Program-made: the position numbers and the translations under genes
DNA from: Alphaproteobacteria bacterium
GTDB lineage: Bacteria; Pseudomonadota; Alphaproteobacteria; JACZXZ01
NCBI GenBank assembly: GCA_052143835.1
Contig: JBKQRV010000093.1
Coordinates: 3,135 to 67,134 of the forward strand
Length of the DNA: 64,000 bases
Direction of reading: 5' to 3'
In this document: positions 3,642 through 61,916 of the stretch, piece by piece
Position numbering within the stretch: the stretch's first letter is position 1
Layout: the number at the start of each line of letters is the position of its first letter
The notes under the pieces: model-generated
Database searches by the model: none
What the model was told of the DNA's origin: nothing
The model's input: the letters and a program-made list of their open reading frames with translations, nothing else

Positions 3642-4664
3642 CTAGGGTCCGTGCGAGCGCGGCGTCTCGCCGGTGCCGGGTCCGGAGCCGGGGCCGCGCC
3701 GGTCGCGCACGCCGACGTTGACGGCGCGCGCGACGACGAACTGCGGGCGCCTGCGCACCTCGTCATAGATGCGCCCGATGTATTCCCCGAGCACGCCGAC
3801 CGCCATGAGCTGCACCCCGCCCATGAAGAGCACGAGGATGATGATCGTCGGCACGCCCATCGGGTAATCCATGCCGAATGCCACCTTGGCGGCGAGGACG
3901 AAGACGATCATCGCTAGGCTGAACAGGAGCACTCCGAAGCCGGTCCACAGCATGAAGGAGAGCGGATATGTCGAGAAACCGAACACGCCGTTGAAGCCGA
4001 TCCTGAGCGAGCCGAGATAGCGGTTGTATTTGCTGATGCCGGCCTCCCGGGCCTCGCGCTCGTATTCGAGGAAGGTCTGGCGGAAGCCGACCAGCGCAAC
4101 GAGGCCTCTGAGAAAGCCGTGGCCCTCGCTGAGCTCGCGCAGCTCCTCGATCACGCGCCGATTTAGGATGCGGAAATCGCCCGTGTTGCGCGGTATCGAG
4201 ACATCGGAGATGCGGTCGATCAGGCGGTAGCCGAATTCGGCGACGAAGCGCTTCATCGCCGTCTCGCCCTTGCGGCTCGCGCGCCGCGCGGTCACCACGT
4301 CGAAGCCTTCCGCGAGCTTGGCGTGCATCTTCTCGATCAGCTCGGGCGGATCCTGGAGGTCGACGTCGATCACCACGCAGCTCTCGCCCCGGCAGTTCAG
4401 GATTCCGGCCATCGTCGCGGCTGGCTGACCGAAGCGCCGGCTGAAGAGGAGAAGCCCGATCCGCGGATCGCGCGCCGCCTCCTCGGCGATGATCGCCTCG
4501 GTGCGGTCGGGACCGGGATCGAGGCAGAAGATGATCTCATAAGACCCGATGCGCTCGAGCACCGGACGCAGGCGGGCGAGAAAGGGGCGGATATTGTCTT
4601 CTTCCCGATAGACCGGAACGACGACCGAAATCCTGGGGATCGCTTCCTCGTCCATGCCCATCAT
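3642..4664 (-). CDS. GT2 polyprenyl-phosphate sugar synthase-like glycosyltransferase (DPM1/ArnC/GtrB-like) with C-terminal TM helices
   Basis: ISVVVPVYREEDNI, DPGPDRT, VIDVDLQDPPE, then two hydrophobic C-terminal helices. Start taken at MMGMDEE; the track ORF extends to 4784. Confidence 0.75.
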   Translation of the reverse strand: MMGMDEEAIPRISVVVPVYREEDNIRPFLARLRPVLERIGSYEIIFCLDPGPDRTEAIIAEEAARDPRIGLLLFSRRFGQPAATMAGILNCRGESCVVIDVDLQDPPELIEKMHAKLAEGFDVVTARRASRKGETAMKRFVAEFGYRLIDRISDVSIPRNTGDFRILNRRVIEELRELSEGHGFLRGLVALVGFRQTFLEYEREAREAGISKYNRYLGSLRIGFNGVFGFSTYPLSFMLWTGFGVLLFSLAMIVFVLAAKVAFGMDYPMGVPTIIILVLFMGGVQLMAVGVLGEYIGRIYDEVRRRPQFVVARAVNVGVRDRRGPGSGPGTGETPRSHGP

Positions 4665-4933
4665 CGCTTTTGGGACAACCTTGATGTCGAACAGCGGAAT
4701 GACGAATGGAATGTTAGCACATCGGGTTTCGCGCGACGGTCGCGGCAATGAGCGCGGCTCTTTACACACAATCCGCAGGGGCAAGTCAAGCGATCAGCCC
4801 GAAGCGCATGCGCGGCCGCCAAGAAGACGGGCAGGCCAAGGACTCCGGGCTGGACTTTCATGGGCGAGGACTCTAAGCATTCGGCACCGGATGCCCCGCG
4901 CATCGTGGTCCGAGGGCCGCTTGGTATGCCGAG

Positions 4934-5845: not shown

Positions 5846-6072
5846 GAGCGGCGGTTTCGCGGCATTCGCAGCACCGTCGGGCCTGAGAGGGACGCGCGGC
5901 AATTGGGACCGGCCGAGCTCGTCGCGGCGAGGCGAGATGGGACGCGAAGGGCGCGGCATTGTAACTTGACCCGCGGGCCTCGGCGAGTTAACAGCCAGAC
6001 GGCGCTTGGTGGCGGACGCGCGCGCGAGTGCGCGCCGGACGCCGCGGAAGCAGCAAGGGAAATCGAACGACG

Positions 6073-7056
6073 ATGTCGAGTGCCGCCCCTCGCTCCGCCC
6101 ACGTGAAGAGATGGCTCGCGCTTTTCGGCAAGGGGGCGGTCTCCGCCTTCCTGCTCTGGCTCATGCTCCGGCATCTCGATTGGGCCGACGTCATCGCGCG
6201 CCTCCATAGTATTTCTCCGTTCTCGCTCCTCGGCGCGCTCCTGCTCACCTATGTCGGCACGTCGCTCTCGGCGGCGAGGTGGTGGCTCATTCTATCGGCG
6301 GTCAATTATCGGCTGCCGATCACCGATTTGCTGCGCTACGTCTTCGTGGGTTTCTTCTTCAACCAAGCATTGCCCTCGACCGTCGGGGGCGATGCCATGC
6401 GCATTGTCCTCGGCACGCGCGCCGGCCTGCCGGTGGACGTGGCCTTCCGCTCGGTGTTCGCGGAGCGGCTGATCGGCCTCTTCGTGCTGTTGCTGTTGAG
6501 CCTCGCCGGCCTGCCCAAGATCATGCGGTACTTCGACATGGACTATCATGCCTGGCTGTTGGCCGGCGTGGTCGTGGGCGGGCTCGTCGGCATGATCGCC
6601 GGCTGGTTTCTCATCAACGTCAGCGGCTGGCTCAGGCGTTTTCGCCTCGGCCGTCTCGTGCACAACGTCGCGCGCGACGTCCTGGCCGTCCTCATGCATC
6701 GCCACTATTTCATCCTGATCGCGGTGATCTCGCTCATCGGCCAAGTGTTGGGGTGCCTCGCGATCTGGGCCATCGCCCGCGGCCTGGGGACCGGCCTCGA
6801 CCCGATTCATACGCTGCTCGTGGTGCCCATCGTCCTCGTGCTCCTCATGGTGCCCATCTCCATCGCGGGCTGGGGGCTGCGCGAGTCGATGCTGCTCGTA
6901 GGCCTCGGCATCGTCGGCGTGAGCCCAGGGGATGCGGTTTTGACCTCGCTGCTTTATGGCCTCGTCAATCTGTTCGGAAGCCTCATCGGCGGGGTGTTGT
7001 GGCTGTTGGGCGGCAGCCGCCGCGGCGCGCTTAAGACGGAGGCGAAGCCCCTTTAA
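6073..7056 (+). CDS. Flippase-like integral membrane protein (LPG-synthase-TM / UPF0104-type domain)
   Basis: About 8 predicted TM segments; conserved-looking FFFNQALPSTVGGDAMR loop. These proteins typically accompany GT2 polyprenyl-P-sugar synthases. The ATG at 6073 is in frame with the track ORF start at 6028. Confidence 0.55.
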   Translation: MSSAAPRSAHVKRWLALFGKGAVSAFLLWLMLRHLDWADVIARLHSISPFSLLGALLLTYVGTSLSAARWWLILSAVNYRLPITDLLRYVFVGFFFNQALPSTVGGDAMRIVLGTRAGLPVDVAFRSVFAERLIGLFVLLLLSLAGLPKIMRYFDMDYHAWLLAGVVVGGLVGMIAGWFLINVSGWLRRFRLGRLVHNVARDVLAVLMHRHYFILIAVISLIGQVLGCLAIWAIARGLGTGLDPIHTLLVVPIVLVLLMVPISIAGWGLRESMLLVGLGIVGVSPGDAVLTSLLYGLVNLFGSLIGGVLWLLGGSRRGALKTEAKPL

Positions 7057-8683: not shown

Positions 8684-8716
8684 GGCTTCAAGCCGCGACC
8701 CGGCCGTCCATCGCAC

Positions 8717-8748: not shown

Positions 8749-8816
8749 CCGAGTGCCGCTGTGCTGAGGTCATGACGCTGGGCCGACGCGATGCGATGGG
8801 ATCATGCGCTGCCGCC

Positions 8817-9686
8817 TCAGTCGCGTCCGATGATGAGGCCTCGCATGCGGCGCGCGAAGATCTTGGTCAGGCTCCAAGCGACCGAGACCCAGTTGCGCCA
8901 TTGCAGCGCCTTCGAGCGGCCGGCCTTGCGCTCGTAAGAGACCGCATCGACCTCCACGAAGGAGGCGCCCTGATCCAGGACGCGTGTGAGCAATTCGGCC
9001 TGGAAGCCGAAGCCGGTGCCCTCGGTGTGATAGCGCAGCACGTAGGAGCGCCGATAGCAGTTGCCGCCGTTGTAATAGCGCGGCTTGTGACCGCTCAAGA
9101 GACGCACCAACGTCGCGAAGGCGCGCGAGAGGAGGATGCGGGCGCGGCTCTTCCCCAAGATCGTTCGATGGCAGGGCACGATGACGTCCGCCTTGTCGAG
9201 CGCGCGGAAGATATTGACGAAGGTCTCCACCGGCTCGACGTCGTCGCCCCAGGCGATACGATGGTAGCGCCCCTTGGCCAAGAAGGCGCTGTCGTAGCAA
9301 TTGCGCGCGATGCCGCGGCGGCGCTCGTGCCGCACCAAGGTGATATCCGTCTCCGGGTGCTCGCGCATGTAACGCTCGACCACGTCTGCGGTCCGATCGG
9401 TCGATGCGTCGTCGAAGACGTGCGCCTCGTAGGTGATGCCGGTCTGCCGCGCCGCCTCGGCGATCGTATCGAGGGTGCCGCAGACCCCGTCCTCCTCGTT
9501 GAGCACGGGGATGTAGAGCGTGATGTCGACCGTGCCGCTGAAGAGTTCATCGTAGAAATCCAGAAGCCCAGGCCGGCGGCCCGGAAATCCGTGGATCACG
9601 CGTGACCTTGCGGCGAGCGCCGGCCTCTCTACGTCCTCGCTGCCCATTCTCTTGCCCATTCGGCACTCGTCGCCGGACCAAGCCAT
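8817..9686 (-). CDS. GT2 family glycosyltransferase (soluble type)
   Basis: DITLYIPVLNEED, HVFDDASTDRT, and a DxD-like region. ATG at 9686; alternative ATGs at 9659 and 9647. Confidence 0.7.
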   Translation of the reverse strand: MAWSGDECRMGKRMGSEDVERPALAARSRVIHGFPGRRPGLLDFYDELFSGTVDITLYIPVLNEEDGVCGTLDTIAEAARQTGITYEAHVFDDASTDRTADVVERYMREHPETDITLVRHERRRGIARNCYDSAFLAKGRYHRIAWGDDVEPVETFVNIFRALDKADVIVPCHRTILGKSRARILLSRAFATLVRLLSGHKPRYYNGGNCYRRSYVLRYHTEGTGFGFQAELLTRVLDQGASFVEVDAVSYERKAGRSKALQWRNWVSVAWSLTKIFARRMRGLIIGRD

Positions 9687-9963
9687 CCGCGGGAGACGTT
9701 ATGCTGATCGCTCAAGGGGGCGCAAGGGTGCGCGTGGGTCCTCAACGGGCCCGTTCCGAGGCCCGTGAATGTGGCGGCAACCGTTTGCTAACCTCTTCAA
9801 TCTTCGAGTAATTCGATGCGAGCGAGGAGACCCAAATGGGCACCTTCGCGGGAAATTGCGGTATTGATATCGCTCCGGACATCGCTATGATCTCGTCCCA
9901 CGACGGTGGGCAGAAACCAGGGCCTCGGTCATCCGATCGGCCCGCAGAGGAGAAATCTCGATC

Positions 9964-10944
9964 TTGGAATCGAACCGGCCGCTCAGCAGGGACCGTGCGC
10001 TCAAGGCCTACCGGGACATGCTGCGCATCCGCATGGTCGAAGAGGCGATTGCGGAGCATTACAGCGAGCAGGAGATGCGTTGTCCTGTCCATTTGTCGGT
10101 CGGACAGGAGGCGGCCGCCGTCGGAGTGTGCCTGGCGCTCACCGACGCCGACCGCGCCTACAGCACGCACCGCTGCCATTCGCATTATCTGGCCAAGGGC
10201 GGACCGCTCAAGCCGATGTTGGCGGAGATCTACGGCAAGGTGGACGGCTGCCTCGGCGGGCGCGGCGGGTCGATGCATCTCACCTCGCCCGAGCATGGCA
10301 TGATGCTGAGCGTGCCGATCGTGGGAAGCTCGATTCCCTTGGCGGTCGGCTCAGCACTCGCGGATACGATCGACGGGCGCGATAGCGTGAGCGTCGCCTT
10401 CTTCGGCGATGCGGCCGTCGAGGAGGGCATCTGGCACGAGAGCGCGAATTTCGCGAGCCTGCGCAAGCTGCCGGTGCTCTTCGTCTGCGAGAACAATCTC
10501 TACTCCGTCTACACCCCGCTCGCCGAGCGCCAGCCGAACCGGCCGCTCACGCAGCTCGCCGAATCGCATGGCATGGCGACGGCGCACGCCGACGGCAACG
10601 ACTTGGACGCGGTCGCGCGCGCCTCGAGCGAAGCGGTCGCGCGCGCCCGGCGCGGCGACGGCCCCAGCTTTCTCCTGCTCGACACCTATCGTTGGCGCGA
10701 GCACTGCGGACCGAATTACGACAATAATATCGGCTACCGCACGCCCGAGGAGTTCGAGTCGTGGCGCGCGCTCGACCCGATCCCGCGCTACCGGCGCGCG
10801 CTCGAAAGCTCCGGCGCGCTCAGCGCCCAGGCGGCAGAGCGCATGGCATCCGAGATCGCTGCGGAGATCGCGGAGGCCTTCGCCTTTGCCAAGGCCTCGC
10901 CCTTGCCCGATGCCAGCGCCGCGGCGAGCACGATATATGCCTGA
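9964..10944 (+). CDS. TPP-dependent dehydrogenase E1 component alpha subunit (PDH/acetoin dehydrogenase E1alpha-like)
   Basis: TPP motif FFGDAAVEEG..x27..CENNLYS; YRDMLRIRMVEE N-terminus. TTG start 11 nt after AGAGGAGAA. No ATG or GTG lies between the upstream stop at 9865 and 9964. Confidence 0.8.
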   Translation: MESNRPLSRDRALKAYRDMLRIRMVEEAIAEHYSEQEMRCPVHLSVGQEAAAVGVCLALTDADRAYSTHRCHSHYLAKGGPLKPMLAEIYGKVDGCLGGRGGSMHLTSPEHGMMLSVPIVGSSIPLAVGSALADTIDGRDSVSVAFFGDAAVEEGIWHESANFASLRKLPVLFVCENNLYSVYTPLAERQPNRPLTQLAESHGMATAHADGNDLDAVARASSEAVARARRGDGPSFLLLDTYRWREHCGPNYDNNIGYRTPEEFESWRALDPIPRYRRALESSGALSAQAAERMASEIAAEIAEAFAFAKASPLPDASAAASTIYA

Positions 10945-12040
10945 GAGCGTCTCGACGATGACCGCGCTCCGTACGATCAGCATGGCCGACGCCATCCGCG
11001 AGGGACTGACGGAAGCGGCCAAGCGCGATCCCTCGGTCATCTTCTTTGCCGAGGGCGTGGCCGACCCGGCCGCGGTCTACGGCACGCTCAAGGGCATCGG
11101 CAGCGTGATCGGCCACGAGCGGATGATCGAGATGCCGGTTGCCGAGGCGGGCCTGTGCGGGGTCGCCATCGGGGCGGCACTCTCCGGCAAGCGGCCGGTG
11201 ATCAGCTTCCACCGGGTCGAGTTCGCGCTGCTCGCGATGGAGCAGATCGTCAACAACGCCGCCAAGACCACCTATATCAGCGGCGGCCGGCACCACGTTC
11301 CGATCGTGCTCCGGCTCGTGGTCGGCCGCGGCTGGGGCCAGGGTCCGGAGCACTCGCAGAGCCTCGAGACGATGTTCTCCTACTTCCCCGGCCTCAAGGT
11401 CGTCATGCCGACCTATCCCGCCGACACCAAGGGCATGGTCGTGGCCGCCGTCGAGGACAACAATCCGGTCATCCTCATCGAGCACCGCTGGTGTCATTAC
11501 GTGCAGGGGCACGTCCCCGAGGGCTATTACCGCGAGGCGATCGACGGGCCGCGCACGATTCGCCAGGGCAAAGACATCACGATCGTCGCCACCAGCTACA
11601 TGGTCCTGGAGGCGATGCGGGCGGCGACGGCGCTCGCGGCGCTCGGCGTGGACGCGGAAGTCATCGACCTGCGCGTTCTGCGGCCGATGGCGCTCGCGCC
11701 GGTTCTCGCCTCCGTGCGCCGCACGGGACGACTCTTGACGGTCGACACCGGCTTCAAGACGCTCGGCATCGGCGCCGAGGTGGTGGCCGAGACGACGGCG
11801 AAGTGCTTCGCCGCGCTTAAGGCGGCACCCCAACGTATCGGGCTCCCGGACCATCCGCTGCCGAGCTCCCGCGGGCTCATCCGCGGCCTCTATCCGGACA
11901 GCATAAGCATCATGCGTACGATCAGCGAGATGCTCAAGCTGCCGGCGGAGCGGGAGGCGCAGGCCGAGGCCGAGCTCGCGGCCCAGCGCGGTAATCTGCC
12001 GATCGATGTGCCCGACCCGTTTTTCAAGGGCCCTTTCTAG
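10937..12040 (+). CDS. TPP-dependent dehydrogenase E1 component beta subunit (transketolase-like)
   Basis: VIFFAEGVADP, GLCGVAIGAALSGKRPV, VVMPTYPADTKGM, and a C-terminal transketolase-C-like domain. The ATG overlaps the alpha stop (ATGCCTGA). A C-terminal 40 aa Ala/Glu-rich extension is present. Confidence 0.8.
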   Translation: MPESVSTMTALRTISMADAIREGLTEAAKRDPSVIFFAEGVADPAAVYGTLKGIGSVIGHERMIEMPVAEAGLCGVAIGAALSGKRPVISFHRVEFALLAMEQIVNNAAKTTYISGGRHHVPIVLRLVVGRGWGQGPEHSQSLETMFSYFPGLKVVMPTYPADTKGMVVAAVEDNNPVILIEHRWCHYVQGHVPEGYYREAIDGPRTIRQGKDITIVATSYMVLEAMRAATALAALGVDAEVIDLRVLRPMALAPVLASVRRTGRLLTVDTGFKTLGIGAEVVAETTAKCFAALKAAPQRIGLPDHPLPSSRGLIRGLYPDSISIMRTISEMLKLPAEREAQAEAELAAQRGNLPIDVPDPFFKGPF

Positions 12041-12088
12041 AACCGACGCCGTCCCTGCCGCGGCAGCCTGAGGAGACGAAGGATCGCC

Positions 12089-13198
12089 ATGCGCGTGCGC
12101 TACTCCCCGCTTGGCCAACAGTTCGCCGAGCCGGACGAGATATTCGAGGAGCTGCGCGCGCTGGTGAAGAGCGGCGACTTCACCTTGGGCAAGGCCGTGG
12201 ACGAGTTCGAGACGGCCTTTGCCGAGACCGTCGGCATCAAGCATGCGATCGGGGTGGGCTCCGGCACGGACGCGCTGAAGATTCCCTTGAAGGCGCTCGG
12301 CATCGGCCCCGGGGACGAGGTGATTACCTGCGCCAATACCTTCTGGGCCACGGTCGGCGCCATCGCCGAGGTCGGCGCGAAGCCGGTCTTCGTCGATTGC
12401 GACGACAGCTTCTGCCTCGATCCCGGGCTGCTCGAGCAGGCGATCACGCCGCGCACCAAGGCGATCATGCCGGTCCATTTGACCGGCGAGGTCGCCGACA
12501 TGCGGCGCATCGGGGCGATCGCCGAGCGCAACGCGCTGCCGCTCGTCGAGGACGGCTGCCAGAGCCTCATGGGCGAGCTCGACGGGGCCAAGGTGGGCAG
12601 CTTCGGCATTGCCTGCGGCTTCTCGATGCATCCCTTGAAGGTCATCAACGTTTGGGGCGATGCGGGGGTCGTCGTCACCAACGACGATGAAATGGACCGG
12701 CTGTGCCGCCTCCTGCGCAACCACGGCCTCAGGAACCGCGACGAGATGGAGATGTTCGGCTACAATTCGCGGCTGGATTCCGTGCAGGCGGTCGTCGGCA
12801 AATGGATCTTGCGCCAGATCGACTGGATCGTCGAAACGCGCGCGAAGAACGCGGCCTATTACGACGAGGGCCTGAAGGACATTCCCGGCATCCGCGTGCC
12901 GCCGCGCAATCCGCGCTCCAAGAACGTCTACCTCCTCTATATGGTCTTTGCCGAGCGGCGCGACGAGCTGGTGCGGCACTGCCTCGCGGCCGGCGTTGAG
13001 GCCAAGGTGCATTACCCCGTTCCCCTCTATCGCCAGCCCGCACTCGCCTTTCTCGCCCACCGTCCGGGCGATTTCCCCGTGACCGACCGCCACGCCGCCT
13101 CCGTCATCAGCTTTCCGGTCGACCAGCATCTCGGCAGGCCCGAGCAGGATCACGTCATCTCAACCGTGCGGAATTTCTATCGCGGAGCCCCATCATGA
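12089..13198 (+). CDS. DegT/DnrJ/EryC1/StrS-family PLP-dependent sugar aminotransferase/dehydratase
   Basis: GVGSGTDAL; FSMHPLKVINVWGDAG (PLP lysine); NHGLRNRDEMEMFGYNSRLD. GAGGAG Shine-Dalgarno 13 nt upstream of the ATG. Confidence 0.85.
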   Translation: MRVRYSPLGQQFAEPDEIFEELRALVKSGDFTLGKAVDEFETAFAETVGIKHAIGVGSGTDALKIPLKALGIGPGDEVITCANTFWATVGAIAEVGAKPVFVDCDDSFCLDPGLLEQAITPRTKAIMPVHLTGEVADMRRIGAIAERNALPLVEDGCQSLMGELDGAKVGSFGIACGFSMHPLKVINVWGDAGVVVTNDDEMDRLCRLLRNHGLRNRDEMEMFGYNSRLDSVQAVVGKWILRQIDWIVETRAKNAAYYDEGLKDIPGIRVPPRNPRSKNVYLLYMVFAERRDELVRHCLAAGVEAKVHYPVPLYRQPALAFLAHRPGDFPVTDRHAASVISFPVDQHLGRPEQDHVISTVRNFYRGAPS

Positions 13199-14307
13199 GC
13201 GAGGCCAAGGTCCCCTTCATCGATCTCAAGCAGCGCTTCGTCGAGGAGCGCGAGGAGCTGCTCGCCTGCGTCGAGCGCGTGCTCGCCAAGGGCCACGTCA
13301 TACTCACGCCGGAGGTGCGCGAGCTCGAGGAGGCGGTCGAGCGCTACACCGGGGCCAAGCATTGCATCAGCCTCAACTCGGGCACGGATGCGCTGATGCT
13401 CGGCCTCTGGGCCTGCGGCATCGGCAAGGGCGACGAGGTGATTCACCCGCCGATCTCGTTCGTGGCGACGACTGCCGCCATCGTGCACATCGGCGCCACG
13501 CCGGTCTTCGCCGACGTGGGGCCGGACCAGCTCATCGATCCGGCCCAGATCGAGCGCCGCATCACGCCGCGCACAAAGGCCATCATGCCGGTGCACTGGA
13601 CGGGGCGCATGTGCAACATGCCCGCCATCCTCGACATCGCCAAGCGCCACAATCTCGTGGTGGTGGAGGATTCGGCGCAGTCGATGGGGTCGTATATGAG
13701 CGGCAAGCACGGCGGCACTTTCGGCCGGGCGGGTGCGATCTCCTGCCACGCGCTCAAGAACTTCAACGCGATCGGCGACGGCGGCCTCCTCCTCACCGAC
13801 GACGACGAGATCGACAAGAAGCTCCGCCTCTATCACAACCACGGCATAGCCTCGCGCGACAATATCGTGATCTACGGCGTCAATAGCCGGTTGGACGCCG
13901 TGAGCGCGGAAGTGCTCAAGTTCCGCCTGACCAGGCTCGAAAGCGTCGTCGGCCGGCGCCGTCGCAATGCCAACCTCTATCGCCAGCTCATCAAGGCGCG
14001 CCAGGTGACGATCCCGGAGGAGAAGCCCGGCACCAAGGACGCCTACGTCATGTTCCTCGTCCTCGCCGAGCGGCGCGACGCGCTCAAGGAGGCGCTCGCC
14101 AAGGACGGCATCGAGACGCTCGTCTATTACGGCACGGCACTCCACCTGCACGAGGCGGCGAAGAAGCTCGGCTACAAGAGGGGCGACTTCCCCGCCGCCG
14201 AGAAGCAGTGCGACATGGTGCTGGCGCTGCCGCACCATCAGCACCTGACCGAGGACCAGATCGGCTTCGTGGCCGACAAGGTGAACCGCTTCTACGGGGT
14301 CAACTGA
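13195..14307 (+). CDS. DegT-family PLP-dependent sugar aminotransferase, paralog 2
   Basis: NSGTDAL; ISCHALKNFNAIGDGG; NHGIASRDNIVIYGVNSRLD. ATGA start/stop overlap with the upstream DegT. Confidence 0.85.
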   Translation: MSEAKVPFIDLKQRFVEEREELLACVERVLAKGHVILTPEVRELEEAVERYTGAKHCISLNSGTDALMLGLWACGIGKGDEVIHPPISFVATTAAIVHIGATPVFADVGPDQLIDPAQIERRITPRTKAIMPVHWTGRMCNMPAILDIAKRHNLVVVEDSAQSMGSYMSGKHGGTFGRAGAISCHALKNFNAIGDGGLLLTDDDEIDKKLRLYHNHGIASRDNIVIYGVNSRLDAVSAEVLKFRLTRLESVVGRRRRNANLYRQLIKARQVTIPEEKPGTKDAYVMFLVLAERRDALKEALAKDGIETLVYYGTALHLHEAAKKLGYKRGDFPAAEKQCDMVLALPHHQHLTEDQIGFVADKVNRFYGVN

Positions 14308-14311
14308 GGCG

Positions 14312-14968
14312 ATGATCGGCGGCCCGGTTCTCGTCATAGCCCCGCACGCGCTCGACGAGGTCCTCGGCTGCGGCGGCACTGTGGCACGGCACGCAGGTGC
14401 TGGTGCCAGGGTCGACATTCTGGTGCTCATGGGCGACGGCAGCGGGCGCGACGCGGCGCGGCGCACGGCTGCCGGCCGGGCCGCCGAGCTCTTGGGCGCG
14501 CGGCCTCCTCGCCTTGCCGGCTTCCCCGAGAACCGCAGCGACACCATCCCGCTCCTCGAGCTGGTGGGTGCGGTCGAGCGCGCGCTACGCGAGCTCTCCC
14601 CCGAGACCGTCTATGTGAGCCCTGCCGGCAGCCTCAACCTCGACCATCGCCGTGTCTTCGAGGCGAGCGTGACCGCACTCCGGCCGCAGCCGGGCCTCTC
14701 CGTGCGCGCGGTCTATGCCTACGAGATTCTCTCGAGCACCAACTGGGCGCCGCGCGGCGTGGGCCTTCCCTTCGAGCCGCAGCGCTTCGTCGACGTGAGC
14801 CAAGTCTTCGCGCTCAAGCTCGCCGCACTCGCGCTCTACGGCGACGAGATGCGCCCCTTTCCCCATGCCCGCTCGTTGGAGGCCGTGAAAGCGCATGCCG
14901 CCTATCGTGGCAGCACGATCGGCGTCGCCCATGCCGAGGCCTTCGAGGTGGTGCGGGAGATCGGTTAG
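14312..14968 (+). CDS. PIG-L/LmbE-family N-acetyl-sugar deacetylase-like protein (variant active-site motif)
   Basis: VIAPHALDEVLGCGGT, against the family consensus AHPDDEVLGCGGT; the C-terminal YRGSTIGVAHAEAFEVV is typical of the family. Confidence 0.7.
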   Translation: MIGGPVLVIAPHALDEVLGCGGTVARHAGAGARVDILVLMGDGSGRDAARRTAAGRAAELLGARPPRLAGFPENRSDTIPLLELVGAVERALRELSPETVYVSPAGSLNLDHRRVFEASVTALRPQPGLSVRAVYAYEILSSTNWAPRGVGLPFEPQRFVDVSQVFALKLAALALYGDEMRPFPHARSLEAVKAHAAYRGSTIGVAHAEAFEVVREIG

Positions 14969-15010
14969 CGGTTTGCGCCGACAACGACAAAGAGCGGCGA
15001 GAGGGAAATC

Positions 15011-16462
15011 GTGAATTTCACCCAGCCGGAATTCCTCATCCTCTTCTCCCTGTTTTTGCCGATCTATTTCATGTTGCGGAGACGGCTGCGCGCGCAGACG
15101 CTCGCGCTCACGCTCGCAAGCTATATCTTCTATGCGTGGTTCGACTGGCGGTTCCTTGGCTTGCTGCTTCTTTCCACGGTCGTCGATTTCTATTTTGCCA
15201 TCGTGATCGACTATGCGAAGCATTCTGAGAAGCAGCCGTATCCGATCAACGTCGCCAAATGCACATTATGGGCGAGCGTCGCCTACAATCTGGCGGTCCT
15301 TGGTTTCTTCAAGTATTTCGATTTCTTCATGGGCTCGTTTCAAGCTTTGTTTGATCATCTTGGAATTCGCGAGTCTCTTCCTGTCCTGCAAATTGTGCTT
15401 CCAGCGGGCATATCGTTCTACACGTTCCAGTCCTTGAGCTACGTGATCGACGTCTATGACGGCAAGCTGCGCGCGACGAACCGTCTCGCGGACTACGCCG
15501 CCTACATCAGCTTCTTCCCGCATCTCGTCTCCGGCCCCATTCTGCGCGGCGCCTACCTCATGCCGAAGATCGTCCATGAGCGCAAAATGTCGCTGCCCTT
15601 GGCCTTGAGCGGACTGCAGCTCGCTCTTTGGGGCTATTTCACCAAGCTGGTCCTGGCCGACAACATGGCCTCCATCGTGAACCGTATCTTCCTCAACCCC
15701 TCGCCGCATGGCGCCGGGGTCATCATCGCGACCTACGCGTTCGCTTTCCAGATCTACGGCGATTTCATGGGCTACACGAATATCGCGCGCGGCATTTCGA
15801 GGATGATGGGCTTCGAGCTCGTGCTCAACTTCAATCTCCCCTATTTCGCGGCGAACCCCGGCGATTTCTGGCGGCGCTGGCACATCAGCCTTTCGAGCTG
15901 GCTGCGCGACTATCTCTATATCCGCCTCGGCGGGAACCGCAACGGGCGGCTCCAAACCTATCGCAATCTGCTTATCACCATGATCCTCGGCGGCCTGTGG
16001 CACGGCGCGGCGTGGAACTTCATCATCTGGGGAGCCTATCACGGAGTCTTGCTCGCCATTCATCGCGCATTTCGCGACGGCAAGCGAGTCTTGTCGGCAG
16101 CGGTGGCGGATCAAGGGGGGGGCCGCGTGCTCAATGGACTGAAGATCGTCTGCTTCTTTCAGCTCACCTGCATCGGCTGGCTCATTTTTCGCGCCCGCGG
16201 CTTTCACGACATTATTGCCAAATTCAAGGCCGTGCTGCTCTATACCAAGCTCGACGATTTTTGGACGCCGGACGCTGCGTATCTCGTGGCATTTGCGGTG
16301 CCGTTCGTGGCATTCGAGGTATATCAATACCTCTCCGGCCAACTCGAGCCCTGGCGCCGCTGGCCCTGGCCGATCCGGACCTTGTGGTATGCCGCATTGC
16401 TGATCTTGATCGCGATCTTGATGCCCGAAGTGGAGACGCCGTTTATCTATTTCCAATTCTAG
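15011..16462 (+). CDS. MBOAT-family membrane-bound O-acyltransferase (AlgI/DltB-like)
   Basis: Classic AlgI N-terminus MNFTQPEFLILFSLFLPIYF; FWRRWHISLSSWLRDYLYIRLGG; WHGAAWNFIIWGAYHG (catalytic His region). GTG start after GAGGGAAATC. Confidence 0.85.
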   Translation: MNFTQPEFLILFSLFLPIYFMLRRRLRAQTLALTLASYIFYAWFDWRFLGLLLLSTVVDFYFAIVIDYAKHSEKQPYPINVAKCTLWASVAYNLAVLGFFKYFDFFMGSFQALFDHLGIRESLPVLQIVLPAGISFYTFQSLSYVIDVYDGKLRATNRLADYAAYISFFPHLVSGPILRGAYLMPKIVHERKMSLPLALSGLQLALWGYFTKLVLADNMASIVNRIFLNPSPHGAGVIIATYAFAFQIYGDFMGYTNIARGISRMMGFELVLNFNLPYFAANPGDFWRRWHISLSSWLRDYLYIRLGGNRNGRLQTYRNLLITMILGGLWHGAAWNFIIWGAYHGVLLAIHRAFRDGKRVLSAAVADQGGGRVLNGLKIVCFFQLTCIGWLIFRARGFHDIIAKFKAVLLYTKLDDFWTPDAAYLVAFAVPFVAFEVYQYLSGQLEPWRRWPWPIRTLWYAALLILIAILMPEVETPFIYFQF

Positions 16463-16484
16463 AAGGAGCGGGCCGGATTTGAGG

Positions 16485-43859: not shown

Positions 43860-44063
43860 GGTCGGCACAGTACACATGACGCGCAAGGGCGCCCCGCGCT
43901 GGCTGATCGTTGCCGCATCCAATCGTTCACCGCGATCCGACGGGCAGCTTCCTGGAGCTGTTATATGGCAAGGTCTTTCTATTGTACGTCGTGCGCCCCA
44001 TCTGCGATGGGATTGTTCGTGGCAGCAAGAGGCAATCGAGTTTTCTCACGGTCTGCTCGTGTT

Positions 44064-45311
44064 ATGAAAACATCTTCAGTCTATCGTGAAATCTCGGTGT
44101 GCCGGATTTGTGGAACCAAAAACCTCGAAAGTATCCTCGACCTCGGAGTGCAGGCGCTTGCCAGCCGCTTTCCCCGTAAGGGCGAGCCGGACCCTCCGCA
44201 AGCGCCGCTCGTGCTGGTGCGGTGCACGCATTGCGGACTCGTCCAACTGCTCCATTCGGTGACGCCAGGAGAACTTTATACCCCCGGTTATGGCTACAAG
44301 TCCGGCGGCAATACCACGATGCAGGCACATCTGGCCGGATTGGCCCGTTGGGTCGAGGAACGCTGCCCGCTAAAGACAGGCGATATTATCGTCGACATCG
44401 GGTCCAACGATGGTACCTTGCTCAAGTCCTTTGCCACCCCTGGCCTCCGGCGGATCGGCATAGATCCGATCGCCGGCAAGTTCCGTGACCAGTACCCCAA
44501 TGACGTGCAGCTCCACGAAAGCTTCTTCTCGGCTGAGACCTACCGCATTGTAAGCGGTGGCGGGAAGGCTAAGGTCGCAACCTCGATCGCCATGTTCTAC
44601 GACCTGGAATCTCCCATGGATTTCGTCGCCGCCGTGAAGGCAGCGCTGCTCCCCGATGGAATATGGGTGTTGGAACAGAGCTATCTGCCAACCATGCTCG
44701 AAGCCAACGCCTTTGACACCATTTGCCATGAGCATTTGGAATACTACGCCTTGCGCCAGATCGAGTATCTAGCCGATACTTCTGGTATGCGTGTCTTTGA
44801 CGTCGAGTTGAATTCATGCAACGGCGGCAGCTTCCGTCTAGCGGTCTGCCAACGGGATGCACCCCACGCCACGCGGGAGGATCGCATCGGGCGGTTGCGC
44901 AAGCTCGAAGGAAAGTTGAAGCTGGATACCCGAGCCCCGTACGACGCCTTCAAGCGGCGGATCGACAAAGTTTGCGAAAAACTGCGGACGTTCGTAGCGG
45001 CCGAGCGTAGAGCCGGCAAGACCTTCTATCTCTATGGCGCCTCCACGAAGGGAAATACGCTCCTCCAATATTGCAAGCTGGATGCGAGCAAAATCGTCGC
45101 TGCGGCGGAGCGTAACCCGGAGAAATGGGGCTGCCGTACGCCGCTGACCGGCATCCCAATTCATTCCGAGGAGGAATGCCGCGCTGCTAGGCCCGATTAT
45201 TTCCTGGTCCTTCCCTGGCATTTTCGTAATGAGTTCGTCGAACGCGAAGCCGAGTTCTTGAGATCCGGCGGCAAGCTCGTCTTTCCTTTGCCCGATTTGG
45301 AAATCGTCTAG
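44064..45311 (+). CDS. Sugar C-methyltransferase (TylCIII/NovU-type, zinc-binding N-domain + MTase + C-terminal domain)
   Basis: CRICGTKNL..CTHCGLVQL zinc knuckle; IVDIGSNDGTLL; CHEHLEYY; C-terminal FYLYGASTKGNTLLQY. Start taken at MKTSSVY; track start 43965. Confidence 0.7.
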   Translation: MKTSSVYREISVCRICGTKNLESILDLGVQALASRFPRKGEPDPPQAPLVLVRCTHCGLVQLLHSVTPGELYTPGYGYKSGGNTTMQAHLAGLARWVEERCPLKTGDIIVDIGSNDGTLLKSFATPGLRRIGIDPIAGKFRDQYPNDVQLHESFFSAETYRIVSGGGKAKVATSIAMFYDLESPMDFVAAVKAALLPDGIWVLEQSYLPTMLEANAFDTICHEHLEYYALRQIEYLADTSGMRVFDVELNSCNGGSFRLAVCQRDAPHATREDRIGRLRKLEGKLKLDTRAPYDAFKRRIDKVCEKLRTFVAAERRAGKTFYLYGASTKGNTLLQYCKLDASKIVAAAERNPEKWGCRTPLTGIPIHSEEECRAARPDYFLVLPWHFRNEFVEREAEFLRSGGKLVFPLPDLEIV

Positions 45312-45313
45312 GA

Positions 45314-46273
45314 ATGGGTACCGCACCTCGGGCTCTCGTCATCGGCGCTGCGGGCCAGGATGGTTCCTACCTCTGCGAGCAGTTGAGGGCGGACGGCCTG
45401 CAAGTCTTCGGCCTGACTCGCCAGGGGCTGAGCGGCCCCGACGGGGCCGAACGGCAGTCGGTCGCCCTATCTGACCGCACTGCCATGGCAGGGCTGATCG
45501 CGAACGGCGGCTTCGATCAAATCTATTACCTCGCCGCCTACCACCATTCGTCCGAAGACCGCCTCGACGCGGAAACCGACATTGTGCGGCGCAGTCTTGC
45601 GGTGCACGTGGACGGGTTGGTCAACGTTCTCGACGCCCTGGTTGCCATCCGGTCGCGCGCGGCACTGTTTTACGCCGCCTCTTCTCATGTCTTCGGCGTC
45701 GTCACGGAAGAGCCTCAGACCGAGCGAACGCCGCTGGCACCGGTCTGCGCCTACGGCATCTCCAAAGCCGCCGGCGTCCAACTCTGTCAATTCTACCGCC
45801 ACGACCAAGGCTTACGCGCCAGTGTCGGGTTCTTGTTCAACCATGAATCGCCGCGGCGGCCCCTGCGTTTCCTTTCGCGCAAGGTCGCCCGCGCCGCCGT
45901 CGAGATACGGCGCGGATTGCGCCGTCAGGTGCGCCTGGGCGACCTTGCGGCGCGCGCAGACTGGGGCTATAGCCCGGAATATACCGACGCCATGCGCCGC
46001 ATCCTTGCTCTCGAAGAAGCCGGCGACTTCGTCATCGCCTCTGGCCGCGGGGCTGCCGTCCGCGATTTCGTCGCGGCCGCCTTCGCCCGGGTCGGATTGG
46101 ACTGGCGCGAGCATGTGGTGATCGATCCGTCGCTGGTTCAGAAGGTCAACCGCGGGTCCCTGGTTGGGAATCCCGCAAAAATCGCGCGGGCAACGGGATG
46201 GTCTGCGCGCACCACTTTGGAGGAATTGGCGGCTCTCATGGTGGATGCGGAATACGCCGCTGTCGAGGCCTGA
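45314..46273 (+). CDS. GDP-mannose 4,6-dehydratase-family NAD(P)-dependent SDR (Rmd-like; catalytic Glu not conserved)
   Basis: ALVIGAAGQDGSYLCEQL; FLFNHESPRRP (GMD-family signature); YGISK (YxxxK). The position aligned to the GMD S/T-S-E triad reads SSH. Confidence 0.7.
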   Translation: MGTAPRALVIGAAGQDGSYLCEQLRADGLQVFGLTRQGLSGPDGAERQSVALSDRTAMAGLIANGGFDQIYYLAAYHHSSEDRLDAETDIVRRSLAVHVDGLVNVLDALVAIRSRAALFYAASSHVFGVVTEEPQTERTPLAPVCAYGISKAAGVQLCQFYRHDQGLRASVGFLFNHESPRRPLRFLSRKVARAAVEIRRGLRRQVRLGDLAARADWGYSPEYTDAMRRILALEEAGDFVIASGRGAAVRDFVAAAFARVGLDWREHVVIDPSLVQKVNRGSLVGNPAKIARATGWSARTTLEELAALMVDAEYAAVEA

Positions 46274-60857: not shown

Positions 60858-61034
60858 GTCTGGTTCCAGCGGCACCCCTGCCCGCCTTAATCGCCAAGGG
60901 GCAGGCGCCGGCACGGCAAACGGTTTTGCAAATTTTGCGGTTTGCGTTGACATCGATTGGCCAAAGACAGAAAACTCTAGGGCTTCCTCTGAGGCTTCTT
61001 GCGCGGTAATCGGGGGAACGCTCGAAGGTCGGAC

Positions 61035-61916
61035 ATGGAAACACGGGCAAACGTGGTGGCACAGGCCGGTTACGGGTCTCCGCACAACGTGCACGCCGAG
61101 GTTTTAGCCTGCCCGCGCTGTCATGCCGGCTCGCTGCGCATGGCAGGAGACAAGTTCCGCTGCCCCCAGTGCGGCTTCGAGGGCGGCTACAGGAACGACG
61201 TCTATCTTGTCATGGACGACAGGAGCAAATCCTATTTCGACGAACTGCATGGGACGATGACCGCGCAGAACGCTAAGGAAGGCGTCAACGAGGTGTTCTA
61301 CGCCAAGCAGTTCGCCTACATCGAGGAAATCCTTCAACCGGGAATGACGATCGTCGATATCGGATGCGGCCCTTCCGTCGGCTACCGGCGTCCGCCGGGG
61401 AGCCTCCTGATCGGGGTCGATCCCTCCTACGAATCGATCGCCGTGAACCGTAGCGTCGATCTTCGTATTTTCGGCGGCGCCCAAGCCCTGCCGATCGCCA
61501 CCGCTTCGGTCGACGTCGTCGTCTGTTTTTATTCGATCCATCACATGATCGGCTCGTCGATCTCGGAAACCCGCGACAACGTCTCCGCCGCCTTTAGGGA
61601 GTTCAAGCGCATCGTCAAACCCGGCGGCAAGATCGTGATCTTCGAAGTGAACCCGTATTGGTTGTTCTGGGCCGCCGAGCAGCTATTTTGGGGCTTGACG
61701 CGCCGCTTGTTCGGCAAGGCCATCGATTTTTACTTCTGGTCGCGGCACGGATTGAAACAGCTCGGACGCCAATATCTTGGAAGCGCGGAGCTGGAAACCG
61801 AGCACTATCGCGCCCCGTGGCGGACGACCTTTCCGCCGGCATTCTCCATCCAGTGGCTTCGCATGCCGTTTCTCCTCTATCCCTTCCATGTCGCGCGCTA
61901 CAGCTGGACCCTTTGA
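61035..61916 (+). CDS. Trm112-like zinc-ribbon + class I SAM methyltransferase
   Basis: CPRCHAGS..CPQCGFEGGYRNDVYLVM; IVDIGCGPS; VDVVVCFYSIHHM; VKPGGKIVIFE. Start taken at METRANV; track TTG at 60999. Confidence 0.65.
   Translation: METRANVVAQAGYGSPHNVHAEVLACPRCHAGSLRMAGDKFRCPQCGFEGGYRNDVYLVMDDRSKSYFDELHGTMTAQNAKEGVNEVFYAKQFAYIEEILQPGMTIVDIGCGPSVGYRRPPGSLLIGVDPSYESIAVNRSVDLRIFGGAQALPIATASVDVVVCFYSIHHMIGSSISETRDNVSAAFREFKRIVKPGGKIVIFEVNPYWLFWAAEQLFWGLTRRLFGKAIDFYFWSRHGLKQLGRQYLGSAELETEHYRAPWRTTFPPAFSIQWLRMPFLLYPFHVARYSWTL

Follow-up and report, generated by a model that had tools for sequence, protein, structure and literature searches.

Gene content of the locus

The window, the whole stretch of 64 kb analysed here, comes from an uncultured alphaproteobacterium and carries an envelope-glycan locus (Table 1). 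Five of its genes, encoding E1alpha, E1beta, two DegT-family aminotransferases and a PIG-L homologue, form one tight plus-strand operon (9964-14968), and open reading frames together with Pfam and NCBIfam matches bear out their placement in the first-pass annotation. The DegT/DegT overlap proposed there is real: the two genes share an ATGA (DegT2 start 13195, DegT1 end 13198), and the PIG-L gene begins 4 nt 3' of the DegT2 stop. A start/stop overlap had also been claimed for E1alpha and E1beta, and this holds for one of two possible E1beta starts. ATG 10937, the NCBI call (367 aa, MGO8867085.1), overlaps the E1alpha stop codon (10942-10944) by 8 nt; ATG 10958, selected by the ENA gene caller, lies 13 nt beyond that stop and gives 360 aa. 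The length of 367 aa is also found in the four closest relatives, and the E1alpha and E1beta genes of Azospirillum oryzae show the identical 8-nt overlap.

The promoter-like site upstream of E1alpha has the top consensus score within positions 8500-21500 (10/12), and no terminator-like site was found from E1alpha to the MBOAT gene, which lies on the same strand 42 nt downstream of PIG-L. The MBOAT gene (175 bits against TIGR04091, under the cut-off) is probably co-transcribed with the cassette in this locus; in other loci the cassette does not have it as a conserved neighbor.

Table 1. Coordinates of features in the window.
Feature	Position	Strand	Basis
PgfS/ArnC-like polyprenyl-phosphate glycosyltransferase	3642..4784	-	NCBIfam PgfS 227 bits, ArnC 148 bits, both under cut-offs
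Flippase-like membrane protein	6028..7056	+	LPG_synthase_TM / TIGR00374
Small GT2 glycosyltransferase	8817..9686	-	Pfam Glycos_transf_2; divergent from E1alpha
Promoter-like site TTGATA-16-TATGAT	9864..9891	+	~73 nt upstream of E1alpha; consensus match only
E1alpha, TPP-binding subunit, 326 aa	9964..10944	+	Pfam E1_dh 231 bits, 1.6e-68; MGO8867084.1
E1beta, Pyr and C-terminal domains and tail, 367 aa (or 360)	10937 (or 10958)..12040	+	Pfam Transket_pyr and Transketolase_C
E1beta C-terminal extension	11942..12037	+	Ala/Glu-rich helical linker, then motif DVPDPFFKGPF (12005-12037)
DegT-family PLP aminotransferase 1	12089..13198	+	Pfam 354 bits, 1.2e-105
DegT-family PLP aminotransferase 2	13195..14307	+	Pfam 346 bits, 2.7e-103
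PIG-L/LmbE-fold protein, altered catalytic motif	14312..14968	+	Pfam PIG-L 55 bits, 1.9e-14
MBOAT (AlgI/DltB-like) membrane O-acyltransferase	15011..16462	+	Pfam MBOAT 2.6e-22
Sugar C-methyltransferase	43965..45311	+	Pfam Methyltransf_13/14
GMD-like SDR	45314..46273	+	Pfam GDP_Man_Dehyd; TIGR01472 178 bits (cut-off 415)
SAM methyltransferase	60999..61916	+	Pfam; homologue of the methyltransferase that follows PIG-L in related loci

E1alpha carries the TPP-binding motif (GDA...ENN) and a His equivalent to human alpha-His263, within W-R-E-H-C-G-P, while E1beta keeps the equivalents of Glu59 and His128. The two subunits presumably form an alpha2beta2 heterotetramer. Neither reaches the NCBIfam PDH cut-offs (E1alpha, 288 bits against TIGR03182, cut-off 394; E1beta, 269 bits against PRK09212, cut-off 321). 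The two DegT proteins are 39% identical to each other and keep the PLP lysine, within HPLK in DegT1 and HALK in DegT2. The top solved relatives of DegT1 are 3UWC (350 bits), which we take to be a Coxiella protein, and then the sugar 3-aminotransferases DesV, QdtB and WbpE; those of DegT2 are 7B0D, 3UWC, DesV and QdtB. The last protein of the operon, annotated at first as a PIG-L deacetylase, does have the PIG-L fold and its zinc ligands, but HPDD has become H-A-L-D and HxDH has become N-L-D-H, and the canonical general-base Asp is missing. The deacetylase label is uncertain because this loss is common to all orthologues with complete sequences (the His is kept in locus L004).

Phylogeny and signatures of the E1 pair

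A domain scan of every open reading frame of about 200 aa or longer detected no E2, E3 or lipoyl domain within the 64 kb window, and tblastn with an E2 sequence gave no match, in agreement with the earlier statement that the pair has no E2 or E3 partner. Absence in cis does not by itself imply that the pair cannot form a 2-oxoacid dehydrogenase complex, as had been argued; phylogeny, the E1beta tail and active-site changes do support that view. In neighbor-joining trees (100 bootstraps; 62 taxa for E1alpha and 55 for E1beta) the window pair belongs to a clade (bootstrap 100% and 99%, respectively) that contains only E1 pairs from glycan or deoxysugar clusters, including Streptomyces pairs resembling Pau11/Pau12 and the pair of a classic 2,6-dideoxysugar cluster (L044). 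All of the E2-linked pairs (16/16) fall outside it. This comparison had been suggested as a check by the first-pass annotation and, with the lack of E2 and E3 in 64 kb, it supports the core of the earlier reading, a stand-alone E1 pair of the AviB1/B2 type in sugar tailoring.

The E1beta extension, described before as a 40 aa Ala/Glu-rich tail, is about 32 aa long (residues 329-360 numbered from the 10958 start) and is Ala/Glu-rich in its first half only, the final 11 residues being a conserved motif. The linker is variable, whereas D-V-P-D-P-F-F-K-G-P-F is near-invariant: all 43 related E1beta proteins from glycan contexts have its core F-x-G-P-[FY], against none of the 16 that are E2-linked. 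An aromatic-x-G-P-F ending is found in 120/120 top database homologues (the exact DVPDPFFKGPF in 109), and the motif is present in 114/120 natural alpha-beta fusions. Only one of 490 plasmid matches has the tail, and that one lies within a sugar cluster. Both active-site loops also carry clade-specific substitutions, with signatures at P41, Y75, G80, E153, S181, R189, E246, G249 and P250 of E1alpha and at R86 (Phe in E2-linked pairs), R124, W126-G127-Q128 and R177 of E1beta. The new invariant arginines (alpha R189; beta R86, R124 and R177) would fit an anionic sugar-phosphate acceptor.

These data bear on whether the pair could be a regular E1 component of acetoin or pyruvate dehydrogenase whose E2 and E3 genes lie at another place in the genome, with a position in the glycan locus that is incidental or that serves acetyl supply for acylation. 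We consider this very improbable, even though the catalytic Glu and His and the TPP motif are intact, the source annotation reads PDH or acetoin dehydrogenase E1 and the locus encodes acyltransferases (MBOAT and two Acyl_transf_3). Besides the exclusion of all E2-linked pairs from the clade, the remodelled loops and the distribution of the tail among plasmid matches, the glycan context of the pair is conserved over many phyla, and the extension occupies the E1beta C-terminus, which we take to be the docking place of the E2 peripheral-subunit-binding domain in Geobacillus PDH.

Conserved genomic neighborhoods

The E1alpha-E1beta-DegT-DegT cassette is found at 15 other loci from several classes and also on a plasmid of the cultured Azospirillum oryzae, whose strain KACC 14407 has the E1 pair as HUE56_RS00825/00820. 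This arrangement is not due to chance; it recurs in many unrelated genomes. Orthologues within cassette loci are 59-74% identical for DegT1 and 47-69% for DegT2. The PIG-L gene is restricted to the closest cassette loci (L002, L004, L082 and L086). Homologues of the small GT2 protein (33-38% identity) adjoin the cassette in L002, L004, L082 and L083, those of the flippase-like protein (31-35%) flank it in L002, L082 and L086, and the distant SAM methyltransferase of the window is 39-40% identical to the PIG-L-adjacent methyltransferase of the same three loci. The C-methyltransferase and GMD-like genes that had been assigned to the pathway do exist, and homologues of the former adjoin E1 pairs in L030, L035, L041 and L065, but they lie 30 kb away and do not belong to the conserved cassette.

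A GmhA and/or HldE-like gene together with SDRs adjoins the pair in 25/43 related loci, which indicates nucleotide-sugar pathways. These NDP-heptose genes adjoin the cassette in most relatives, whose gene content suggests a pathway based on heptose, one not foreseen by the first-pass annotation. Directly after E1beta, relatives encode either the two DegT enzymes or an SDR or Zn-ADH, the latter two often accompanied by an O-methyltransferase, as expected if the carbonyl of the E1 product is reduced (as by Pau7) or transaminated. ALS-type genes adjoin E1 pairs in L022, L026, L028, L030, L032, L065 and L088 and are absent from the 64 kb window; a second TPP enzyme of this type or a split transketolase is present in some related loci, and UGDH-like 6-dehydrogenases are encoded at L016 and L020.

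Proposed function

On balance we lean toward a stand-alone TPP carboligase of sugar tailoring, split from 2-oxoacid dehydrogenase complexes, that attaches a C2 unit from pyruvate to the carbonyl of a sugar ahead of transamination; we hold this to be somewhat probable. Gene content, the lack of E2 and E3, the clade, the E1beta tail, the substitutions in the active-site loops and the recurrence of the cassette are observed; for the donor, acceptor, regiochemistry, step order and final sugar we propose the following. The E1 pair would decarboxylate a 2-oxo acid (pyruvate being the likeliest) to a hydroxyethylidene-TPP carbanion and would add the C2 unit to the carbonyl carbon of an activated sugar, nucleotide-linked or already on a carrier, instead of a lipoyl group, leaving a C-acetyl (alpha-ketol) group. 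The two co-translated DegT enzymes may then transaminate the ketone so formed, perhaps along with another keto position, to give a C-branched or chain-extended amino sugar; the branched amino-deoxy sugar predicted by the first-pass annotation, here with a C2 branch, is a candidate. The PIG-L-fold protein, small GT2, flippase-like protein and a methyltransferase, which travel with the cassette, could complete the sugar and place it on a carrier lipid, so that it can be used beyond the cytoplasm.

Several observations count against a carboligase. The pair retains the catalytic His used in reductive acylation of lipoamide, and in AlphaFold2 models the tail did not dock with confidence at any site. 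Genes for a nucleotidyltransferase, a 4,6-dehydratase or a sugar oxidoreductase that could provide the keto acceptor are absent beside the window cassette, the sole SDR being 30 kb off. Both DegT proteins resemble ring C3-aminotransferases and not the known enzymes that aminate side-chain ketones, and a C2 addition creates one new ketone, which does not account for two aminotransferases. Finally, no C2-branched sugar is known from the LPS of Coxiella burnetii despite its O-antigen E1 genes (PMC5843353, PMC5423948).

Two DegT enzymes imply two carbonyls, as would suit an enzyme of the same class and sugar context with other chemistry: chain extension at a terminal aldehyde (DXS- or transketolase-like, e.g. 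at hexose C6 or heptose C7), or use of glyoxylate, hydroxypyruvate or 2-oxobutyrate as donor. Its product would lack a 4-C-acetyl branch and be either a linear sugar with more carbons or an amino sugar with a C1 or C3 branch. The strong tie of the family to complete NDP-heptose pathways and UGDH-like 6-dehydrogenases is consistent with this, the additional TPP enzymes or split transketolases suggest multi-step building of carbon skeletons, and at ~50% identity to Pau11-like E1alpha the substrate could differ. We regard this alternative as possible but rather unlikely, since functional evidence exists for Pau11/12-like and AviB1/B2 members only and links these to a C2 branch at C4 that stems from pyruvate (PMC4425429), and another donor has no direct support. 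It is less probable still, and in our view doubtful, that the pair carries out non-oxidative decarboxylation of a sugar-derived 2-oxo acid (keto-uronic or ulosonic) to an aldehyde that DegT aminates, with no carboligation. E1 enzymes natively use 2-oxo acids, UGDH-like and SDR enzymes next to some relatives could make such an acid, and a DegT enzyme needs an aldehyde or ketone; however, the cassette lacks a uronate-forming dehydrogenase in the window and its closest relatives, and the Pau and AviB genetic data indicate gain of carbon, not loss. Judged from sequence, the clade of the window pair is widespread, and its most likely products are amino sugars with a carbon branch or an extended chain.

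Comparison with known systems

Pau11/Pau12 (paulomycose branch) and AviB1/AviB2 (eurekanate branch) are, like the window pair, separate E1alpha and E1beta proteins of a sugar pathway with no E2 or E3; AviB1/AviB2 are likened to it by their published description, not by sequence. Knockout of pau11 abolished paulomycin production, which was restored on complementation, and AviB1/B2 have been implicated in the eurekanate C2 branch (PMC4425429, PMC4753412); for both systems the functional evidence is genetic only. Two Streptomyces loci (L050 and L051) have neighbors (EF-G, an EmrB-type transporter, a DesVII-like GT and a 345-aa E1beta) that match the published table for pau9, pau10, pau12 and pau15. 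Their pairs fall inside the same well-supported clade as the window pair, with ~50% identity for E1alpha and ~42% for E1beta, and these paulomycin-type E1beta proteins share the F-x-G-P-[FY] end. Pau and Avi belong to actinomycete antibiotic clusters with 2,3-dehydratase, ketoreductase, epimerase and GT1 genes, whereas the window cassette has two DegT genes and a PIG-L-fold protein and no adjacent Pau7-type ketoreductase.

In yersiniose A biosynthesis, YerE of Yersinia pseudotuberculosis uses TPP to move a C2 unit from pyruvate onto a 4-keto sugar (PMC4425429, PMC4753412). It resembles the proposed role in adding C2 within a Gram-negative O-antigen pathway, but it is a single-chain ALS-type flavoprotein (TPP_enzyme_N/M/C) whose architecture is unrelated to E1alpha/beta. 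The heterotetrameric pyruvate, acetoin and branched-chain E1 enzymes (human PDH 1NI4, Geobacillus 1W85) share fold, domains, TPP motif and catalytic Glu and His with the window pair (E-values against solved E1 structures of 2e-45 for alpha and 8e-62 for beta). The window pair differs from them in having no E2/E3, in scoring under the equivalog cut-offs, in belonging to a separate clade, and by the C-terminal extension of E1beta, Arg for Phe at beta 86, and the GRGWGQG and WREHxGP loops. In Coxiella burnetii, the E1-type 'pyruvate dehydrogenase' genes CBU_0692/CBU_0693 lie in the LPS O-antigen region, which also encodes the HldE-like CBU_0678 and SDRs (PMC5423948, PMC5843353, PMC13252051); likened by context and not by sequence, they have the same setting as most relatives of the window pair.

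Organization of the locus

In order to map the locus, we listed its ORFs, followed GC content by codon position and scanned every sizeable ORF against Pfam and NCBIfam. The window, which has a GC content of about 63% and derives from an uncultured alphaproteobacterium, is one very large envelope-glycan locus. The scanned ORFs include at least 12 SAM-methyltransferase domains, an unusually high density for 64 kb, and six GT2 glycosyltransferases, of which two are fusions with a methyltransferase. A PgfS/ArnC-like polyprenyl-phosphate glycosyltransferase, a flippase-like protein, one MBOAT and two Acyl_transf_3 acyltransferases are also encoded, and the window is rich in large membrane proteins without a family assignment. 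The NCBI accessions of E1alpha and E1beta are MGO8867084.1 and MGO8867085.1, both from a MAG contig of 142 kb. An ENA contig (ERZ25039587:contig_77105) matches the window only from position 6992, so positions 1-6991 come from the NCBI assembly alone.

The thiamine diphosphate (TPP) enzyme pair E1alpha/E1beta heads an operon whose flanking genes encode a GT2, a flippase-like protein and a methyltransferase. The ORF listing and the domain matches place its five genes exactly where the first-pass annotation had put them, and the ATGA overlap joining the two DegT genes is present as described; the PIG-L gene starts 4 nt after DegT2. The proposed start/stop overlap of E1alpha and E1beta depends on the start codon of the latter: ATG 10937, the NCBI call, gives an 8-nt overlap with the E1alpha stop, whereas ATG 10958, the choice of the ENA gene caller, leaves no overlap. 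The 367-aa form beginning at ATG 10937 is conserved in the four closest relatives, and the same 8-nt overlap occurs in Azospirillum oryzae. On weak evidence in both cases, a promoter-like site lies 73 nt 5' of E1alpha and no terminator-like site was found ahead of the MBOAT gene at 15011.

Coordinates of features in the window
Feature	Position	Remark
E1alpha	9964-10944	
E1beta	10937 or 10958 to 12040	two ATG starts
DegT1	12089-13198	
DegT2	13195-14307	
PIG-L homolog	14312-14968	
Flippase-like protein	6028-7056	homolog near cassette in closest loci
GT2	8817-9686	homolog near cassette in closest loci
Methyltransferase	60999-61916	homolog near cassette in closest loci
MBOAT-associated paralogs	16479-17645, 17791-19035	51% identical
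GT2-methyltransferase fusions	38844-40319, 46198-47805	
TylC3-type sugar C-methyltransferase	43965-45311	
FA_desaturase-fold protein	34222-35259	
Large proteins without confident family match	19537-22938, 28369-31673, 40598-42253, 48038-49525, 49647-51227, 25795-28209, 58227-60857	most about 500-880 aa

Within region 15011-19035, the AlgI/DltB-like MBOAT gene is followed by two paralogs without a family match, which may be extracytoplasmic partners of the acyltransferase. The large proteins without a confident match form paralog families: an adjacent pair (19537-21165 and 21313-22938) is duplicated as 28369-30015 and 30012-31673 (59% and 57% identity), and 25795-28209 is 40% identical to 58227-60857, which has a weak YfhO (GT-C) match. 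These proteins may be GT-C-type transferases or polymerases. The glycan locus also encodes an FA_desaturase-fold protein, which among NCBIfam models comes closest to the guanitoxin arginine hydroxylase GntB, though it scores below the cut-off.

Three other pathway types were rejected on the Pfam map: a phosphonate (Ppd) pathway, as PEP mutase is absent; a hopanoid (Hpn) cluster, as squalene-hopene cyclase and hpn genes are absent; and an aminoglycoside-type pathway using DegT and PIG-L proteins, as 2-deoxy-scyllo-inosose synthase is absent.

Relation to E1 subunits of dehydrogenase complexes

Judged by its sequence matches, the pair is a dehydrogenase-type E1 by fold, with an E1_dh alpha subunit and a Transket_pyr/Transketolase_C beta subunit (Pfam); solved PDH and BCKDH E1s match alpha at 2e-45 and beta at 8e-62. 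The TPP motif (GDA...ENN) and the active-site His (in WREHC) are kept in alpha, as are the TPP-activating Glu (AEAG) and the His (PEHSQS) in beta. Scores against NCBIfam models fall below the curated cut-offs, at 288 versus 394 for E1alpha (TIGR03182) and 269 versus 321 for E1beta (PRK09212). Domain scans of the ORFs and tblastn found no E2 (lipoyl acyltransferase), E3 or lipoyl domain in the 64-kb window, which agrees with the earlier claim as far as this stretch goes. E1 subunits of this type work with an E2 and an E3 that usually have neighboring genes; for the present pair, these could be encoded elsewhere in the genome. A single-chain TPP enzyme of the YerE type (TPP_enzyme_N/M/C) was likewise absent from the window by domain scans and homolog search, and the homolog search found no GmhA, HldE, ALS-type TPP enzyme, split transketolase, UGDH, Zn-ADH or B12-radical SAM protein there.

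Conserved gene neighborhoods

Database searches returned 8000 homologs of E1alpha and 5434 of E1beta. The best 120 for each subunit are 63-100% identical to the window proteins (63-98% for the best 120 of the 8000 E1alpha homologs). In a scan of one genome per species we obtained 80 loci from many phyla, clustered their neighboring ORFs and scored each locus for E2, GmhA, HldE-like, DegT and PIG-L genes.

The closest loci (L002, L003, L004, L082, L084 and L086; 63-72% identity) share the order E1alpha-E1beta-DegT-DegT, which we refer to as the cassette, and all except L003 and L084 also have a PIG-L gene. In L002, L082 and L086 the cassette is followed by genes for a methyltransferase, a small GT2, a flippase-like protein and a NUDIX protein; the first three have homologs in the window. 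Locus L084 (E1alpha P0070) combines the E1 pair with NUDIX, two DegT, B12-radical SAM and separate split transketolase genes, which suggests that one sugar undergoes several carbon-skeleton-editing steps.

In loci of about 48-63% identity, NDP-heptose genes, either the complete pathway or part of it (SIS/GmhA and a cytidylyltransferase-PfkB HldE-like protein), usually lie 5' of the pair together with SDR genes. The genes 3' of the pair are two DegT genes in a Candidatus Pelagibacter MAG, Paraglaciecola, Alteromonas and Vicinamibacterales, or alternatively SDR or Zn-ADH genes, often with an O-methyltransferase. Frequent further neighbors are ALS-type TPP enzymes, split transketolases, B12-radical SAM proteins and C-methyltransferases. 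SDRs usually flank the E1 pair directly in the relatives. The window cassette contains none, and a GMD-like SDR is encoded 30 kb from it. A literature search combining heptose, thiamine and O-antigen yielded no relevant paper. In 16 loci at 49% identity or less, an E2 gene (lipoyl and catalytic domain) directly follows E1beta; these are bona fide complexes and were used as the internal control set.

The cassette is also found in the cultured Azospirillum oryzae KACC 14407, on plasmid NZ_CP054615.1 (198579-227658, locus L089), beside genes for GmhA, an HldE-like kinase and three SDRs, in the order SDR-SDR-PfkB kinase-SIS-SDR-E1alpha-E1beta-DegT-DegT-hypothetical-radical SAM-NUDIX. Carbamoyltransferase, SGNH hydrolase and GT4 genes are nearby. 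Identity to the window proteins is 62% (E1alpha), 54% (E1beta), 61% (DegT1) and 47% (DegT2), and this was the only one of 490 plasmid E1beta hits aligned through the tail.

Natural E1alpha-E1beta fusions of 647-745 aa are common (L053, L065, L069, L088; proteins P0269-P0388) and occur in Omnitrophota, Magnetococcales, Woesearchaeota and cultured marine Synechococcus and Cyanobium. The Synechococcus fusion belongs to a full heptose-nucleotide cluster, which also encodes a second TPP enzyme, of the ALS type.

The O-antigen region of Coxiella burnetii contains the E1-type genes CBU_0692/0693 and also the HldE-like CBU_0678, which is needed for virenose-containing LPS in a role that is unexplained (PMC5423948, PMC5843353, PMC13252051). 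One paper classed such Coxiella E1 genes under fatty-acid metabolism (PMC5423948).

Phylogeny of the E1 pair

In neighbor-joining trees built from Kimura distances rather than by maximum likelihood (100 bootstraps; taxa picked by similarity to the query; roots human PDHA1 for alpha and Geobacillus E1beta for beta), the window pair falls in a clade of 62 taxa for alpha (100%) and 55 for beta (99%), which includes every glycan-context pair and 0 of the 16 E2-linked pairs. Three Streptomyces loci lie inside this clade. Two of them (L050 and L051) carry EF-G, an EmrB-type transporter, a DesVII-like glycosyltransferase and a 345-aa E1beta, a gene set that corresponds to pau10, pau9, pau15 and pau12 in the paulomycin cluster as published; from synteny and lengths we infer that their pairs are of the pau11/12 type. 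The third (L044) is a textbook 2,6-dideoxysugar cluster with a 2,3-dehydratase, a 3-ketoreductase, RmlA, a 3,5-epimerase and a GT1. The paulomycin authors, drawing on the analogy with AviB1/B2 of avilamycin, gave Pau11/12 a role in forming the C2 branch of paulomycose, and a pau11 knock-out, which can be complemented, ends paulomycin production (PMC4425429, PMC4753412).

The phylogeny that the first-pass annotation had proposed as a check thus favors its reading, because the pair shares a clade with the Pau-type Streptomyces pairs while the E2-linked pairs lie outside. Its core proposal, a stand-alone sugar E1 pair of the AviB1/B2 type, gains support from clade, signature and glycan context alike. 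By ancestry and signature, the pair belongs to the AviB/Pau kind, the tree being anchored for this kind by L050, L051 and L044. We consider it very likely that the pair serves a sugar pathway and is not the E1 of a complex.

C-terminal tail and active-site signatures of the clade

The C-terminal tail of E1beta, previously described as 40 aa long and Ala/Glu-rich, is real, but it measures about 32 aa and consists of a variable helix-forming linker followed by a conserved terminal motif. The consensus of this motif is D-[VIK]-P-[DGN]-x-x-F-x-G-P-[FY]-COOH, and the window sequence is DVPDPFFKGPF. Its core, the F-x-G-P-[FY] signature, was defined in the present analysis rather than taken from the literature; it ends all 43 other glycan-context E1beta proteins and none of the 16 E2-linked ones. 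Aromatic-x-G-P-F terminates all of the best 120 of the 5434 E1beta homologs, and 109 of these 120 carry exactly DVPDPFFKGPF, though they are only 66-72% identical overall. The Streptomyces proteins end in GFQGPF or GFVGPY, and the motif is present in 114 of the best 120 natural alpha-beta fusion hits, including cultured marine Synechococcus. The motif is therefore a practical signature for the clade, one that separates it from true dehydrogenase E1s where current annotation does not.

Substitutions specific to the clade cluster in the active-site loops of both subunits: P41, E153, S181, R189 and a W-R-E-H-x-G-P loop in alpha, and R86 (Phe in E2-linked pairs), R124 and R177 in beta. The arginines that are newly invariant in the clade would fit an acceptor that carries phosphate. 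Also specific to the clade is the beta loop G-R-G-W-G-Q-G, which directly precedes the catalytic His. Its Trp126 is present in 44 of 44 tail-bearing sequences and in 0 of 10 tail-less, E2-less pairs within the same clade; since Trp126 tracks the presence of the tail, this correlation suggests that tail and loop work together. AlphaFold2 did not place the tail with confidence, either in E1beta alone (pLDDT 83) or in a natural alpha-beta fusion (pLDDT 90.6, pTM 0.93), and in each model confidence was low both for the motif at the end of the tail, with a pLDDT of about 52-65, and for the GRGWGQG loop, with about 51-57. Docking of the tail may take place across the alpha2beta2 interface or may require bound ligands.

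A second E2-less group (L039, L040, L042, L045, L046, L049, L053, L061, L067 and L068) lacks the C-terminal motif wherever the end of E1beta is readable. It typically occurs with one DegT, a class-I aminotransferase and a sugar-phosphate transferase, and it has beta R86, R124 and R177, but not Trp126, in common with the tail-bearing clade.

DegT and PIG-L partners

Both DegT domains are full-length (Pfam, 354 bits for DegT1 and 346 bits for DegT2). Dehydratase members of the DegT family have His in place of the PLP-binding Lys; this Lys is present in both window proteins, as HPLK in DegT1 and HALK in DegT2. The nearest solved relatives of both are the sugar C3-aminotransferases DesV, QdtB and WbpE, and also 3UWC; neither reached an NCBIfam equivalog cut-off, and literature searches on 3UWC and 7B0D found nothing.

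The PIG-L homolog (54.7 bits, Pfam) keeps the metal ligands H12, D15 and H111, which align with those of TT1542. Its HPDD motif is changed to H-A-L-D (H-[AG]-L-D in cassette orthologs), the Asp-to-Leu change being common to all orthologs with complete sequence (L002, L004, L082 and L087). The HxDH motif reads N-L-D-H (N-L-x-D-H), with Asn for the first His, which L004 keeps. We take the HPDD Asp to be the general base, with a role for the first HxDH His, as in MshB. The PIG-L family also includes the hydratase 5CGZ. Thus, of the deacetylase assignment made in the first-pass annotation, the PIG-L fold and metal ligands stand, whereas the HPDD Asp and the first HxDH His are changed; the metal site is kept and the usual general base is gone, and the deacetylase label does not seem warranted as it stands.

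Proposed function

To our knowledge, C2-branched sugars have just two described routes, of which the E1-pair route is backed by gene knock-outs in two antibiotic pathways; no biochemistry is known to us for this route or for any clade member. A carboligase model for the E1 pair and the DegT proteins seems moderately likely to us. The pair would form hydroxyethylidene-TPP from pyruvate and transfer the C2 unit to a carbonyl of a sugar, which would then bear a C-acetyl group; the ketone so formed, and perhaps another keto position as well, would be aminated by the DegT enzymes; and the co-travelling GT2 would pass the sugar to a lipid carrier, after which it would be flipped. The model draws on the clade shared with Pau-type pairs, on the uniformly sugar-related context and on the SDR/Zn-ADH or DegT genes directly 3' of E1beta in relatives, as expected for a carbonyl that is reduced or transaminated. 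Against it count the lack of an adjacent source of the keto acceptor in the cassette, the second aminotransferase, which has no explanation, and the heptose link in relatives, which would also be compatible with chain extension or with a different donor. The cassette predicts an undescribed amino sugar; we know of no sugar that matches the predicted product.

It is conceivable, if doubtful, that tail-bearing E1s are phylum-spanning "sugar carboligases" that make branched or chain-extended (C8-C10), often diamino sugars mostly from NDP-heptose, with DVPDPFFKGPF and the co-varying Trp126 of the beta loop forming a self-docking element that replaces the lipoyl/E2 interaction and creates a sugar-acceptor site. 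Among the hosts of tail-bearing members are a Candidatus Pelagibacter (SAR11) MAG, marine Synechococcus, Azospirillum and Omnitrophota, and the Coxiella O-antigen region may encode such an enzyme too. The E1 clade is abundant in many phyla, in cell-envelope glycan loci and usually beside NDP-heptose genes. Because the cassette occurs in a cultured, transformable Azospirillum, which offers a tractable model, the amino-sugar question is open to direct test.

Comparison with known systems

Like AviB1/B2 and Pau11/12, the window pair is a stand-alone alpha/beta pair encoded in a sugar cluster. Unlike them, it lies in an alphaproteobacterial envelope-glycan locus, and its cassette includes two aminotransferases and an atypical PIG-L protein. 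This setting, an envelope-glycan locus with a conserved cassette of two aminotransferases and an atypical PIG-L protein, is new for the AviB/Pau kind.
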